From positions 51,881 through 115,880 of the forward strand of contig DIEY01000072.1 in the NCBI GenBank assembly GCA_002418865.1: a stretch of 64,000 nt of DNA, written 5' to 3'. This document shows, one piece after another, positions 39,035 through 46,881 of the stretch; position 1 is the first letter of the stretch, and every line of letters starts with the position of its first letter. Below the pieces are notes generated by a model. That model made no database searches. It saw nothing but the letters and a program-made list of their open reading frames with translations, and was not told where the DNA came from. Made by a program: the position numbers and the translations under genes. The stretch is from Bacteroidales bacterium UBA5762 (lineage in GTDB: Bacteria; Bacteroidota; Bacteroidia; Bacteroidales; TTA-H9).

Positions 39035-39559
39035 TTAGTCGATTTTTAATTGATTCAAAACATCCCATCGCGGATCTACTGGAGTTTCCTTAGGTGAGAG
39101 TTCTTCCAAAATTTCGAGATTCTGTTTGTTGCACCCCAAGTTTCCTTGCTCATCGGGTAAGTGTAAACGATGATAAGGCACCAATAAATGGATAAAATCA
39201 TATAGCATTGACGATACATCAACTTCGTGGCTTCCCTGAGGTAAAATTAATACATCATCATCTTCTTCCAAGTATTCTGATCCAAACTTGATAAAAACAA
39301 CTTCTTTCCCAGAAATAGGCTGCATATATTCATAGGCGCAGCGATCACATACCACTTCAACTTCACCATGAATATCAAAACTTAATACAAGCATCTTTTC
39401 TTGTTTTTCTAAGTCCAAATCTACTTTCACTTGGCCAACATGAATTTCCGTTTCTTCGAAACATTCGAAAAAATCGGATCCAATGTCAAAATCGAAATGA
39501 TGATGACCCAATGATAAGCCTTTAAACCCCAGATGATATGGTTTTAATCTATTCGACAC
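39035..39559 (-). CDS. yceD: YceD/DUF177 23S rRNA accumulation protein; GTG start probably 39559
   Basis: FKGL..G.H.FDF, VVCDRC, DPRWDVL; upstream of rpmF; -7 box at 39580-39587. Confidence 0.9.
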   Translation of the reverse strand: MSNRLKPYHLGFKGLSLGHHHFDFDIGSDFFECFEETEIHVGQVKVDLDLEKQEKMLVLSFDIHGEVEVVCDRCAYEYMQPISGKEVVFIKFGSEYLEEDDDVLILPQGSHEVDVSSMLYDFIHLLVPYHRLHLPDEQGNLGCNKQNLEILEELSPKETPVDPRWDVLNQLKID

Positions 39560-39641
39560 CTTTTTCACAAATCGGGGGGCAAAATTACAAAATAAAATGA
39601 ATGAATATGAAAATAGAAATAAAAGGGAAGCATTAGAATGA

Positions 39642-42600
39642 TTACTTGAAGGCTTTTTCAGGCAAACCATCGCCCTGAATGCTTAAACGAGGAAAATATT
39701 CAGGTACTGATCTTCCCATAAGCTTATCAACATACATTTTAGCGAGATATTGACCCAACATAAAGCCTTGTCCACGAAGTCCTACAAATAATCCTAAATC
39801 GGGATCTATAATCATGCGAGGTTCAACATAATAACCTGCCCAAACAGCTTGAAAACCAACCGAAGATAATTCAGGCAACCAATCCACAAATACCTCCGAA
39901 ACGATTTCAAGAAATTCTTTTGTGTTGATTTTCAGATTTTTAGATGTTTCCGCGGGATCTACAGCAGGAGAAGCACATCCAATTACTTGTCCAGTTTCGG
40001 CAAGCTGTTGTCCATAAACTGCAACAAAACCCTTATATTTTCTTCTATCAATCAACATAGGAAGCGGAATATTGTCAACTCCCAGCATTGGCATACGACG
40101 TGTAATAAATGCCTGATGACGAACAGGATACAGGCCTGTCTCTATACCAAGACGACGGGCAAATTGTCCTGCTTCAGGTCCCAAGGCATTGATGAAGATT
40201 TCTGTGCTGTATTCAATGTATTGTTTGGTATGATCTTGCACCAAAACTTGAAATTCATTTCCATTCTTTTTTACATCTATCAATTTACAATCTTCCAAAA
40301 TTGTACCTCCATGCTGAATTCCAATTTGACGGATTAAATCGATGGTTTTGCCCGGAGTAGCTTGCCAACAATTATAAGTAATCTGAGCCGCTATATAGGT
40401 TTTTAAACTTGGATTGAAAAATGGGGAAATACGTTTTGTAAAATCCTTCGGACTGATCATTTCGGCTTTGCTCCATGCCATAGCAGCTTCTAAGGCCTTA
40501 TACATATCTTCATCATGCGCAAAATTTACGTATTGAATGGGATGATAATCAATGTTGCGTAATTGTTGTAATTCAATAAAAATCTGACGATTATGTTCCG
40601 CAATATCCGAAAGCTCAGGAACGCTGAAATTGGGTCGGCCTCCTGCGATATTTCTCCATGAAGAACCACGGCCAAAATTAACCAAAACAGGTTTCTTACT
40701 GGCTTCGGATAAATATCTAAAAAGAGCACTACCACCTATCCCTCCACCAGCTATGATGGCTTCGACCTTGATTTTTTTAATAGGCTTGTTGACGATATAG
40801 TTCTCCTGCACAGGCCTAGGATATAACTCACCCAGTACAAGCTGATTCGACATTGGCCCTCGAGGTGTGGCTTCGCCAACAATCTGAATTCCATAATCCT
40901 TTATTTTACTCTTTAATCGAGGTATGCAACGCTTGCCACGACATGCTCCCATCCCTAAACGAGTAGTATGTTTTATTTCATCAATGGAAATAAATTTCCT
41001 TTCACCTACCACTTCTAATATTTCCTCCATTTTTACGTCATCACAATGACAAATATAACTTTCAGCAGGGACTTGTTCATCATAAGGTTGAAGTTCGAAT
41101 GGTTCGGGATAATTTTCCTTTACTATAAAACTACGCACTTGAGTAAGATCTTCTCCATGCAAGCTAAATGACTTTACACGAGCAATATGGGTTTTATTGG
41201 GTTTTCGAAGAATTTTATCGATCACTCCTTCCCCTAAAACTTTCCCATTATTGTCAACAAGAAAAACCTCTGCATTCTCTTTTACTTCATATTCAATGGG
41301 TAAAAATACCCAGTCGCGTTTTAGATTGTAGCCAAAAATAGCCAAGCCCGGACATTGATACACACAGTCCATACAGCCAATACATTTATTGAAATCGATG
41401 GAAGGCACTGTACTGGTGGAGGATTTGGTTATGGCACCATGAGGACATGAAAAAGCACAAGGATTACAGGCGAATCCATAAAGACAATCGATTAAAACGA
41501 ATCCTTTTGCTTCCATTCGTTCGCGTTCAGGACGGTAAGGCTGATCGATAATTTTTATAGGATGTTGTTGCGAATCGATATATTCTTTCGAAAGTGAGAG
41601 ATATTCATCATAATTCAAGCGTATTCCCATATCCATCAAAATTTCGTAGGCAACCTGCTTTCCCCTCAAAACCGCGCTCGTACCTTCTCCTATACGAATG
41701 GCATCGCCGGCTCCATAACATTTTCGCCCAAAAATTTCATTGCCTTTAATTAGCAATTGATCATCCGAAACCAATCCCGTACAAATATTGATAGCATCGA
41801 TACCTTCTACCACGGTTTCCGTTCCCGGAATAGGATGGAAATTTTCGCAACGCGCTATTACAGCGCCTATAATTCCCGTTGAATCAGAATTGGGAATGGC
41901 TTTAAGAAGTATATGTGAAGTCAAAATAGGGATTCCTAACCTTCTTACTCTATTAGCCTGCACAGGAAACCCCCCTTCGAAAGGCTGAGCTTCCAAAATA
42001 GCCTTTACCCTTGCACCTGCTTGCATCAGCTGGTATGAAGTCAAATATCCTATATTGCCGGCTCCAACCGTTAAAACATTTTTACCCAAAAGGGTAAACT
42101 GCATATTCATCATTTTTTGAACCACAGCAGCCGTGTATACTCCCGGCAAATCATCATTTTCAAAGGTTGGCATAAAGGGTACGGCTCCAGTAGCTACAAC
42201 CAAATATTCTGTATCAATATAATAGATTCTATCGGTTGAAATTTCCTTAACTGCAATCCGCCCTCCCTCCAGAATATCCCATACCGTCGAATTCAGAAAT
42301 ATTCCTTCATGATTAGCTCCCGCAAGGGTTTGGGCAATATCGAAACCACGCATCCCTCCATATTTCTTTTCCTTCTCGAAAAAGAAAAACTGATGAGTTT
42401 GCATTAGAAATTGCCCACCTATCTTACTATTATTATCCACCACCAAATTATCTATTCCATATTCACGCAAAATCTCTCTGGCAGCTAAACCTGCTGGGCC
42501 TGCACCAATAATAACCACTTGTGTTTTATAAACATCAATGGGTTCATTCTTTGCATATTCTATAATATCAGGCCTATAATCATGCGGAATTTCCTTCACT

Positions 42601-42866
42601 TCCTTTACTTCATCCACCAGAGTAATACAAATACGCTTCACCTGGCCATCCACCAACATCTCACATGCACCGCATTTGCCTATACCACACTCCAAACTTC
42701 GCTTACGATTGCGTAAACTATGGCTGTGTACTGGAAATCCGGCCTGATGCAAGGCAGCTGCAATGGTAAAACCTTTTTCGGCTTCGATGATGTGCTCATC
42801 AAACTGAAAAGTTACCTTTTCAGCCTTGGGAATCTCAAGAATGGGATGAGTAGTAATTTTATACAT
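39642..42866 (-). CDS. Multidomain Fe-S flavoprotein: [2Fe-2S] + FAD/NAD oxidoreductase + 2x[4Fe-4S] + BFD-like [2Fe-2S] + DAO-family FAD dehydrogenase
   Basis: CGIGKCGAC..C; GAGPAG and GAGNIG; CLYGFACNPCAFSC and CIGCMDCVYQC; ICHC..GMGACRGKRC; AGGGIGG, PVRHQ, WAGYY, GQGFML. Confidence 0.88.
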   Translation of the reverse strand: MYKITTHPILEIPKAEKVTFQFDEHIIEAEKGFTIAAALHQAGFPVHSHSLRNRKRSLECGIGKCGACEMLVDGQVKRICITLVDEVKEVKEIPHDYRPDIIEYAKNEPIDVYKTQVVIIGAGPAGLAAREILREYGIDNLVVDNNSKIGGQFLMQTHQFFFFEKEKKYGGMRGFDIAQTLAGANHEGIFLNSTVWDILEGGRIAVKEISTDRIYYIDTEYLVVATGAVPFMPTFENDDLPGVYTAAVVQKMMNMQFTLLGKNVLTVGAGNIGYLTSYQLMQAGARVKAILEAQPFEGGFPVQANRVRRLGIPILTSHILLKAIPNSDSTGIIGAVIARCENFHPIPGTETVVEGIDAINICTGLVSDDQLLIKGNEIFGRKCYGAGDAIRIGEGTSAVLRGKQVAYEILMDMGIRLNYDEYLSLSKEYIDSQQHPIKIIDQPYRPERERMEAKGFVLIDCLYGFACNPCAFSCPHGAITKSSTSTVPSIDFNKCIGCMDCVYQCPGLAIFGYNLKRDWVFLPIEYEVKENAEVFLVDNNGKVLGEGVIDKILRKPNKTHIARVKSFSLHGEDLTQVRSFIVKENYPEPFELQPYDEQVPAESYICHCDDVKMEEILEVVGERKFISIDEIKHTTRLGMGACRGKRCIPRLKSKIKDYGIQIVGEATPRGPMSNQLVLGELYPRPVQENYIVNKPIKKIKVEAIIAGGGIGGSALFRYLSEASKKPVLVNFGRGSSWRNIAGGRPNFSVPELSDIAEHNRQIFIELQQLRNIDYHPIQYVNFAHDEDMYKALEAAMAWSKAEMISPKDFTKRISPFFNPSLKTYIAAQITYNCWQATPGKTIDLIRQIGIQHGGTILEDCKLIDVKKNGNEFQVLVQDHTKQYIEYSTEIFINALGPEAGQFARRLGIETGLYPVRHQAFITRRMPMLGVDNIPLPMLIDRRKYKGFVAVYGQQLAETGQVIGCASPAVDPAETSKNLKINTKEFLEIVSEVFVDWLPELSSVGFQAVWAGYYVEPRMIIDPDLGLFVGLRGQGFMLGQYLAKMYVDKLMGRSVPEYFPRLSIQGDGLPEKAFK

Positions 42867-42899: not shown

Positions 42900-42917
42900 T
42901 TGTGAATTATTTCACAG
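42900..42917. promoter_or_regulatory. Rex-like (or CRP/FNR-like) operator TTGTGAA-TTAT-TTCACAG
   Basis: 13/14 defined positions match TTGTGAA-N4-TTCACAA; abuts the -7 box CAAAATTA (42918-42925) of the Fe-S flavoprotein gene. Confidence 0.7.
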
Positions 42918-43098
42918 CAAAATTACTGGGATTATCTTTTATGATTGAATCTTATCTTTAAAAAGTTCCTATTCATAATTATTTCAAATAATAATTCAAA
43001 AAATTGATTTATATTGAATTTCGATAATTCACTACTTGGATATAAAACATTAGAGTCGAAAAAATTAAAAATAACCATAATAGATTTAAACCTCTTCT

Positions 43099-43140: not shown

Positions 43141-44310
43141 ATGTCACTAGATTTCAACGATACTTCAATAGCCTATGCTCGAATGAGTGATACAGATTTG
43201 AAAAAAGCCCAGTTTCTCTTTCGGCTCATTTCATCTCCAAAATTGGTAAATGCAGGCAAACAGCTTTTGAATGGACTTTTAAGAATTCATTTCCCTGTTG
43301 ATTGGGCCATCAAACCAACCGTTTATCATCAGTTTGTTGGTGGAGAAGAGCTTGAGCATTGTAGCCAGATTATAAACTTGTTAAGCCAATACAACGTTAA
43401 ATCCATATTAGACTATTCGGTCGAAGCCATCCAAGATGATGATGCCATAAATAAAGTATTAAACGAAACTCTTCGTTCTATTCGTTTTGCTGCAAAAAAT
43501 CCCGATATTCCTTTTGCCGTGTTTAAACCATCGGCTTTCATTCAACCTCAGATTCTCGACAAAATAGAACATCCCGAAACATTATCCCAGGATGAGCATG
43601 CACAGATTGAACAGTTTAAAAACAGAATCGATATACTTTGTCACGAATCGGCTTCACTTGGGCAACCCATCCTCATAGATGCCGAACATACTTGGTATCA
43701 AGGATTAATTGATGAGATTGCGGAAGAAATGATGTTACAATACAATAAAGAACACACTATTGTATATAATACTTTGCAAATGTATCGCATCGACAGAATT
43801 TCATTTCTTCAACAACAAATTCAAAAAGCCCATGAAAACGGATATTTACTTGGGTTAAAGTTTGTGAGGGGGGCTTATATGGAAAAAGAAAGAGACAGAG
43901 CTCGAAAGTATGGTTATGCATCACCTATACACCCTGATAAAGCCTCTACCGATAGAGCCTTTAATGAAGCACTGAAAATCTCCATAGAAAATATGGATGT
44001 GACTTCTATATTTTGTGGCACACATAACGAAGAAAGCTGCCTTTACCTAACACAACTTATGCAGGAAAGAGACATAAATAAGAATAATAACAACATTTGG
44101 TTTTCACAGTTATATGGCATGAGTGACCATATCAGTTTCAATCTTGCCATGAATGGCTATAATGTTGCTAAATACATACCTTATGGTCCTGTTAAAAATG
44201 TAATGCCTTATCTAATTCGTAGAGCTGAAGAAAACACTTCGGTTGCCGGGCAAACAAGCCGTGAGCTTCGACTCCTTCAAAAAGAAATCGAAAGAAGAAA
44301 ACTAAGATAA
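43141..44310 (+). CDS. Monofunctional proline dehydrogenase (PutB/PRODH)
   Basis: LIDAE, YNTLQMYR, KFVRGAYMEKE, GTHN, QLYGMSD, KYIPYGP, PYLIRRAEEN. Confidence 0.93.
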   Translation: MSLDFNDTSIAYARMSDTDLKKAQFLFRLISSPKLVNAGKQLLNGLLRIHFPVDWAIKPTVYHQFVGGEELEHCSQIINLLSQYNVKSILDYSVEAIQDDDAINKVLNETLRSIRFAAKNPDIPFAVFKPSAFIQPQILDKIEHPETLSQDEHAQIEQFKNRIDILCHESASLGQPILIDAEHTWYQGLIDEIAEEMMLQYNKEHTIVYNTLQMYRIDRISFLQQQIQKAHENGYLLGLKFVRGAYMEKERDRARKYGYASPIHPDKASTDRAFNEALKISIENMDVTSIFCGTHNEESCLYLTQLMQERDINKNNNNIWFSQLYGMSDHISFNLAMNGYNVAKYIPYGPVKNVMPYLIRRAEENTSVAGQTSRELRLLQKEIERRKLR

Positions 44311-45199: not shown

Positions 45200-46582
45200 T
45201 CAATGCTCAACCTTTTCGAGTTCAACCGTAAAATGACGCATAATAGGAGCTTCCCATGAAATTCGATATCCATGTTGGATATTCAAACGACGGTCCCAAA
45301 TATTTTTGATTGCAACGGCCACGACGTCCATGTGATTATTAGTGTAAACTCTTCTAGGAATAGCCAATCGAACCGTTTCGAGAGCCGGATAACGGTCCTC
45401 ACGTGTAATAGGATCTCTGTCGGCTAATAAAGTTCCAATTTCTACGGCACGGATTCCGGCTTCAAGGTAGATTTCGATAGCAAGTGTTTGAGCCACATAT
45501 TCTTTACGCGGAACATTAGGCAGAAACTTCAGTGCATCCACAAAAACTGCATGTCCGCCAACAGGTTGTTGTATAGGAATTCCAAAATCGGTGAGTCGTT
45601 TCCCGAGATATTCTACTTGACGTATACGTGTCTCTAAATATTCGAAAGTAGTACTCTCGCGCAGACCTTCTGCCATTGCATTCATATCTCGTCCCGCCAT
45701 GCCTCCATAAGTAATATATCCTTCGAACATGATGTTGAAAGTAGTGGCTTGCCTAAAAATTTCTTCAGAACGAAATCCTATGAATCCACCAATGTTGACA
45801 ATTCCATCTTTTTTACCACTCATAGTAGATAAATCGGCATAAGAATACATTTCGGTAACAATTTCTCGAATCGATTTTTCTTTATATTCTGGCTCACGTA
45901 GTTTGATGAAATAAGCATTTTCTGCAAAACGAGCCGAATCGTAACAAACGGGAATGCCATATTTATTAGCTAAAGCTTTTACTTCACGCAGATTCTGCAT
46001 CGAAACAGGTTGTCCCCCTGAAGTGTTGCAAGTAATAGTCATCAAAATAAAAGGAATATTCTCTTTTGGATTGGATTTTAGCACATCTTCGAGTTTCTGC
46101 AAATCCACATTCCCTTTGAAAGGATGAGAAATACTGGTATCGAAAGCTTCATTTATGCTACAGTCAATAGCTACTGCATGTCGAAACTCAATATGACCTT
46201 TAGTAGTATCGAAAGGCGAATTGCCCGGGATAACGTCACCAGGTTTAACCAGGGCCGAAAATAAAACGTTCTCTGCAGCGCGCCCTTGATGTGTTGGCAG
46301 AAAATATGGGAAACCAAATATTTCATAAATGGCCTGTTTCAGCTTGTAATATGAAGTTGCTCCGGCATAACTTTCATCGCCAAGCATCAGCTCACTCCAC
46401 TGACGGTCACTCATGGCTCCTGTACCAGAATCAGTGATTAAATCAATATACACTTGCTCGCTTTTGAGATTGAATAAATTGTATCTGGCTTGTTTTATCC
46501 ATTCCTCCCTTTGAACCCGCGAGCTCCGATAGATGGGCTCTACCATCTTTATCCGGTAATATTCAGCAAATGGTAATTCCAT
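45200..46582 (-). CDS. tnaA: Tryptophanase (beta-eliminating lyase)
   Basis: IDLITDSGT, PTHQGRAAE, FDTT, SGKKD PLP lysine; C-terminal RHFT has His (tyrosine phenol-lyase has RFFT). Confidence 0.9.
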   Translation of the reverse strand: MELPFAEYYRIKMVEPIYRSSRVQREEWIKQARYNLFNLKSEQVYIDLITDSGTGAMSDRQWSELMLGDESYAGATSYYKLKQAIYEIFGFPYFLPTHQGRAAENVLFSALVKPGDVIPGNSPFDTTKGHIEFRHAVAIDCSINEAFDTSISHPFKGNVDLQKLEDVLKSNPKENIPFILMTITCNTSGGQPVSMQNLREVKALANKYGIPVCYDSARFAENAYFIKLREPEYKEKSIREIVTEMYSYADLSTMSGKKDGIVNIGGFIGFRSEEIFRQATTFNIMFEGYITYGGMAGRDMNAMAEGLRESTTFEYLETRIRQVEYLGKRLTDFGIPIQQPVGGHAVFVDALKFLPNVPRKEYVAQTLAIEIYLEAGIRAVEIGTLLADRDPITREDRYPALETVRLAIPRRVYTNNHMDVVAVAIKNIWDRRLNIQHGYRISWEAPIMRHFTVELEKVEH

Positions 46583-46861: not shown

Positions 46862-46881
46862 TTTGTTAAATAATTAACAAA
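46862..46881. promoter_or_regulatory. Rex-like operator TTTGTTAA-ATAA-TTAACAAA
   Basis: Perfect 8-bp arms with a 4-nt spacer, overlapping the -33/spacer region of the promoter whose -7 box TACCTTTG is at 46889-46896. Confidence 0.65.

Follow-up and report, generated by a model that had tools for sequence, protein, structure and literature searches.

Which regulator reads the inverted repeat that lies at the promoter of a large fused oxidoreductase gene in the Bacteroidales bacterium UBA5762? The window analysed here, a continuous stretch of 64,000 nucleotides, carries at positions 42900-42917 the sequence TTGTGAATTATTTCACAG, an 18-bp inverted repeat of the form TTGTGAA-TTAT-TTCACAG. The repressor Rex binds TTGTGAA-N4-TTCACAA and leaves the DNA at a high NADH/NAD+ ratio. 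The repeat agrees with this sequence at 13 of the 14 specified positions, the sole mismatch being the last base, and it also contains the CRP core TGTGA-N6-TCACA. The palindrome is very probably an operator for the NADH/NAD+-sensing repressor Rex, for the reasons given below. The parts of the promoter region are as follows (positions in the window):

39642..42866, minus strand: fused oxidoreductase gene, encoding a single chain of 1074 aa with Fer2_4, Pyr_redox_2, 4Fe-4S dicluster, BFD-like 2Fe-2S and DAO domains (Pfam)
42900..42917, no strand assigned: predicted Rex operator, minus-strand sequence CTGTGAAATAATTCACAA, matrix score 23.9 bits
42918..42925, minus strand: -7 element TAATTTTG of the fused oxidoreductase gene, fitting TAnnTTTG, directly 5' of the operator
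43141-44310: PutA-type proline dehydrogenase (PRODH) gene, the divergent neighbour, with its own -7 box TAACTTTG at 43090-43097

Read along the minus strand, the order is ...CCCAG, TAATTTTG, CTGTGAAATAATTCACAA, TG...(33 nt)...ATG, with zero gap between the -7 box and the palindrome and with 33 nt from the end of the palindrome to the ATG (42866) of the 1074-aa reading frame. The first-pass annotation had noted a near-perfect Rex-type operator sequence here, adjacent to the -7 box and with a core identical to the CRP consensus, and all three statements proved correct. The Bacteroidetes -7 element is TAnnTTTG, and transcription usually begins a few bases past it. With the start placed from the -7 box in this way, the palindrome would span about -4 to +14. 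A clear copy of the -33 element TTTG was not seen at this promoter. The -7 box of the divergent PRODH gene lies about 180 nt from the operator, which should therefore act on the fusion gene only; PRODH is probably outside the control of the 42900-42917 site.

Taken alone, the site is only suggestive. The chance expectation for the 64-kb window at no more than one mismatch is 0.06 matches, and 6 of 100 shuffles of the window contained such a match. The case for an operator is made by the comparative data.

A Rex operator calls attention to rex itself. The assembly (2.8 Mb, 37.7% GC, 102 contigs, 95.6% complete) contains exactly one match to the Rex DNA-binding domain PF06971, at 49 bits. In the control panel of this search, the laboratory strain Bacteroides thetaiotaomicron also proved to have Rex. 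The reading frame is complete, with 209 aa (L001:1486-2115, contig G000 C97). Its product can be aligned from end to end with B. subtilis Rex (2VT2, E 3e-34), and equally with the Thermotoga (5ZZ5) and Thermus (3IKT and 1XCB) proteins (E 1e-27 to 3e-34 for these structures). In this alignment, the RRD of the recognition helix, the GxGxxG loop, the FD motif that follows beta-2 and the swapped helix at the C terminus all correspond. UBA5762 Rex thus resembles the solved structures in its winged-helix motif, in the Rossmann GxGxxG and in the swapped C-terminal helix, although its identity to them is moderate only. The gene is part of a co-oriented run (G000 C97, L001:326-3141), in which a hybrid receiver/histidine-kinase gene (380 aa) is followed after an 18-nt gap by rex and then by a hydG-like radical-SAM gene. 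A weak half-box, TTAGGAATGAATTCACAA, precedes the kinase-rex run; it scores only 6.7 bits, and therefore no claim of rex autoregulation is made. The source of the assembly is a hydrocarbon metagenome, and a search of DNA runs also found the sequence in wastewater, groundwater and oil-facility metagenomes.

Conservation of the box was assessed in orthologous promoters, with one genome taken per species. This yielded 80 full-length orthologues of the fused oxidoreductase (70-91% identity), all of them from Bacteroidales or Bacteroidota metagenome-assembled genomes (MAGs). Within 150 nt upstream, the box is present in 31/80 at up to two mismatches, in 17/80 at up to one and in 7/80 as a perfect copy. 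First-order Markov simulation of the same sequences gave expectations of 1.3, 0.12 and 0.003, respectively. In a control on natural sequence, the remaining 62 kb of intergenic DNA in these loci contained 7 boxes, each with exactly two mismatches. The box density is therefore 2.6 per kb upstream of the orthologues versus 0.11 per kb in other intergenic DNA, a 23-fold excess.

The position of the box relative to the promoter falls into a few classes. In 13 promoters (this one and 12 orthologues) it abuts the -7 box, in 6 it sits inside the -33/-7 spacer, in 9 it lies just upstream of -33 and ends 26-30 nt 5' of the -7 box, and in 2 it is found further upstream still. Among members of the abutting class the flanks have fully diverged, and TAnnTTTG-C-(T)TGT[GT]AA-N4-TT[CA]ACA is retained. 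These data bear on the alternative of a palindrome without operator function, be it an AT-rich inverted repeat that arose by chance or a hairpin in the 5' leader RNA. The shuffle result noted above leaves some room for chance, and a 6-bp stem could form in RNA. Against this, 31 boxes in 80 promoters far exceed the 1.3 expected, and the density excess holds against other intergenic sequence from these loci. The transcript would not contain the box in 17 promoters, because it lies 5' of the -7 box there. The predicted fold of the leader is no better than that of shuffled sequences (z = -1.04). With the box upstream of the promoter in many relatives, it would act as DNA and not as an RNA hairpin; the hairpin was rejected on the basis of these upstream positions and the z-score, and chance or RNA structure is an extremely improbable explanation overall.

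Two further features were seen near orthologues. Three loci (L024:2636, L046:2337, L059:2656) share a near-identical TTGTTAATCA[AG]TGCAAAA element, roughly 350-650 nt 5' of the fusion gene, whose left half-site is Rex-like and whose right half is not. In another (L047:78-147), tandem CATTTCAC units lie just upstream of the orthologue and reach its start codon.

If the conserved palindrome is a Rex operator, its distribution can be compared with that of rex. The gene was sought in 75 orthologue-bearing genomes, and 65/75 scored above the Pfam cut-off. At up to two mismatches, the box occurs upstream of the orthologue in 31/65 rex-containing genomes versus 0/10 rex-less ones. The corresponding Fisher P of 0.004 is optimistic, because the absences of rex come from MAGs, where they may reflect incompleteness, and because the genomes share ancestry and are phylogenetically non-independent. 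These caveats weaken the figure for the association, not its direction. There is no recognisable box in 34/65 of the rex-containing relatives, and control of the fused oxidoreductase gene is therefore not universal.

Further sites in the UBA5762 genome were looked for in two ways. A pattern scan of the whole genome with TTGTKAA-N4-TTMACAA at up to one mismatch found 12 sites, of which 9/12 are intergenic; the intergenic fraction of the genome is about 12%, by crude ORF calls made for this analysis. A weight matrix was also built only from orthologue-upstream sites of other genomes, with the window's own site left out. With this matrix, 42900-42917 scores 23.9 bits, among the top three of the 2.8-Mb genome, and the nine best matches genome-wide are all intergenic (9/9). 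The genes behind these nine matches, identified by their Pfam domains, are the predicted targets:

HydC/HydB/HydA-type [FeFe] hydrogenase operon, with two boxes 17 nt apart
second NuoE/NuoF-like pair, with two boxes 17 nt apart
nqrA-F (Na+-NQR)
glutamate dehydrogenase (gdhA)
PYC_OADA carboxylase subunit
short-chain dehydrogenase (SDR)
M64 peptidase-ptb-ptb-buk, with box TTGTTAAATAATTAACAA at 46863..46880 of the window (no strand assigned), a perfect palindrome of 23.4 bits
radical-SAM/SPASM gene or its divergent outer-membrane-like neighbour
1074-aa fused oxidoreductase

At both NuoE/F-containing operons (G000 C47:44915-44949 and C97:7744-7778), the boxes occur in tandem, with starts exactly 17 nt apart. 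The fused oxidoreductase promoter differs from this layout in having a single box. The second-best match in the window, TTGTTAAATAATTAACAA, is flanked by tnaA (minus strand, 45200-46582), 281 nt away, and by the M64 peptidase-ptb-ptb-buk genes (plus strand, from 46967), which begin 87 nt downstream of it; it is probably a Rex box for these fermentation/ATP genes. In metagenome contigs, near-identical strains keep the nqrA box, and so does one relative at 72% identity, where the spacer has changed. Homologues at 59% identity or less lack it, and the comparison is only modestly informative. The genome thus offers a clean and compact predicted Rex regulon of about nine operators. A weaker match (14.7 bits), TTGTGAATTTTTTCATAA at G000 C97:29458-29475, lies over the start codon of a secreted-type Fe/Mn superoxide dismutase gene and may be either a weak Rex site or a chance occurrence.

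The sister sites are also informative on whether a regulator of the CRP/FNR family binds the palindrome and responds to a nucleotide, oxygen or another signal instead of NADH. The core at 42900-42917 is a perfect CRP site, and some orthologous boxes lie upstream of -33, where activators often bind. However, this site is the sole intergenic TGTGA-N6-TCACA in the genome, whereas among the sites that share its spacing and flanks, 10/12 TGTTA-N6-TAACA and 2/2 mixed ones are intergenic. The CRP core is not conserved across the orthologous and sister sites, which read TGTTA/TAACA. Among them, position 5 of the half-site alternates freely between G and T (TGTGAA versus TGTTAA), and this is a position that CRP reads: CRP depends on a G:C pair that is lost in TGTTA. 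The 42900-42917 site does not match the FNR core TTGAT-N4-ATCAA either. In addition, the box tracks the presence of rex. With the E. coli CRP and FNR sequences as queries, phmmer --max and tblastn searches of the 95.6%-complete genome found no canonical CRP/FNR homologue, although such a single-sequence test is weak and remote members could be missed. Taken together, a CRP/FNR-type regulator is very unlikely at this promoter.

The same alternation is what published Rex sites would predict. It fits both published forms of the Rex consensus and not CRP: the general consensus TTGTGAANNNNTTCACAA of Ravcheev et al. 2012, as cited in PMC6391272 and PMC5317091, and the Clostridiaceae consensus TTGTTAANNNNTTAACAA (PMC9600882). 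The typical targets of Rex are hydrogenases, NADH dehydrogenases and butyrate-type fermentation genes (PMC6391272, PMC9600882).

A last alternative is that some other Bacteroidales transcription factor reads the same palindrome and that its association with rex is a phylogenetic coincidence. One or a few clades might account for all 10 rex-less genomes, and the literature searched yielded no experimentally characterised Rex from Bacteroidota. On the other hand, such a factor would have to share the published Rex consensus in both of its variants (PMC6391272, PMC9600882). The predicted targets in UBA5762 are the classic Rex ones (hydrogenase, NADH dehydrogenase, butyrate-type fermentation), and UBA5762 Rex retains the recognition-helix motif of the structurally characterised proteins. 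Regulation by another factor is accordingly rated as quite improbable, and Rex remains the preferred candidate. In motif, conservation, co-occurrence with rex and regulon context, 42900-42917 has the features sought in a Rex operator, and its place beside the -7 box would suit a repressor. The Rex-type regulation proposed by the first-pass annotation thus found support in the checks that computation allowed: one complete rex gene is present, with full-length alignment to Rex structures, the site is conserved in orthologous promoters well above expectation, it is absent from rex-less genomes, and CRP/FNR is disfavoured.

Closely comparable systems are found in the clostridial Rex regulons (consensus TTGTTAANNNNTTAACAA; PMC9600882, PMC6405883), for example the C. 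kluyveri rex-crt-bcd-etf-hbd-nfn cluster (PMC6405883). They have in common with UBA5762 the 18-bp palindrome, whose T-variant half-site is found here in the sister sites and orthologues, and the targets: [FeFe] hydrogenase, butyrate-pathway genes, SDRs and NADH-linked complexes. The hosts in both cases ferment anaerobically. They differ in that the host here belongs to Bacteroidota, with -33/-7 promoters and an operator joined to the -7 box, and a single-chain oxidoreductase of the proline dehydrogenase (PDH) type is not among the reported Rex targets. The general G-variant consensus TTGTGAANNNNTTCACAA is matched by the UBA5762 site at 13/14 positions. The Rex regulon of Caldicellulosiruptor bescii (PMC6391272) includes HydG and hydrogenase genes, and in UBA5762 rex is directly upstream of the hydG-like gene. 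Binding by C. bescii Rex was shown by EMSA with NADH dependence (PMC6391272), whereas the UBA5762 operator is predicted from sequence. The E. coli CRP site, TGTGA-N6-TCACA, is identical in its core to 42900-42917 alone. The flanks of the UBA5762 site have the Rex pattern, as do its related sites, and in the orthologous sites the G/C read by CRP is lost. In the literature searched, which did not include the main comparative paper, no description of a Rex regulon from Bacteroidota was found. The regulatory logic of Rex itself is textbook knowledge; what is new is the single-chain PDH-type oxidoreductase as a recurrent predicted member of the regulon.

The binding of Rex, its response to NADH, the repressing direction of the effect and the transcription start are predictions for the fused oxidoreductase promoter, and they would combine as follows. 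[quoted passage not shown] RNA polymerase would then be unable to bind or open the promoter, because the site starts right after the -7 element and covers about -4 to +14 of the presumed start. As NADH builds up, Rex would bind it, change conformation and leave the DNA. The fused oxidoreductase would then be made along with the HydABC-type [FeFe] hydrogenase, NuoE/F, Na+-NQR, glutamate dehydrogenase, ptb-ptb-buk, the SDR and the carboxylase subunit. An operator welded to the -7 box, or held at two other fixed positions, is a simple model for repression on Bacteroidetes promoters, and the operator/-7 box unit could possibly serve as a redox-responsive part for Bacteroides genetics.

The consequence for the enzyme depends on what the fusion does. 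Its nearest solved structures are chain A (residues 14-269) and chain B (residues 700-1047) of 1Y56, followed by sarcosine oxidase alpha. 1Y56 is the L-proline dehydrogenase complex of Pyrococcus horikoshii, formed by alpha and beta chains, and the fused oxidoreductase is a relative of both subunits, alpha and beta, of the dye-linked L-proline dehydrogenase of archaea. Its second dinucleotide motif, GAGNIG, is intact and has a Glu at +19, which suggests NAD(H) as the cofactor. The operator assigns this widespread and uncharacterised single-chain relative of archaeal proline dehydrogenase to a predicted NADH-responsive set in dozens of species. It also yields a hypothesis on when the enzyme is made and on which reaction direction should be assayed first.

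The first-pass annotation had gone further and proposed that the fused oxidoreductase is an NADH-consuming sink or imine reductase, an idea that is plausible but unproven. An NADH-consuming role is a reasonable reading because the best-understood partners in the predicted regulon, hydrogenase and Nqr, are NADH oxidisers. The P5C/proline couple has a potential of about -0.12 V versus -0.32 V for NAD+/NADH, and since it is far more positive, an NAD-linked enzyme of such a type would favour imine reduction. Not every gene in a Rex regulon, however, encodes an NADH consumer (PMC6391272). A more specific version, that the fusion runs reductively as an NADH-dependent reductase of P5C or another cyclic imine and perhaps couples exergonic imine reduction by NADH to ferredoxin reduction by flavin-based electron bifurcation, is speculative and judged rather unlikely. 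Bifurcation comes into consideration because the chain has three Fe-S modules and two flavin domains. If true, the bifurcating reductase would be a new kind of electron sink for fermentation, spread widely among anaerobic Bacteroidales and induced by NADH excess together with HydABC and Nqr.

The back-to-back layout with PRODH could have suggested a proline/P5C cycle hard-wired by gene adjacency. As a conserved feature this was rejected, since only 1/80 orthologous loci (L003) has a PRODH homologue within its 3-kb flanks, and the layout of the two proline dehydrogenase genes is therefore lineage-specific. At the other end, a YceD-family reading frame (39035-39670, 211 aa), as listed, extends 29 nt into the 3' end of the fusion gene, with rpmF and fabH-like genes after it. 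Its first ~95 residues are outside the Pfam match, and its true start is probably further downstream.
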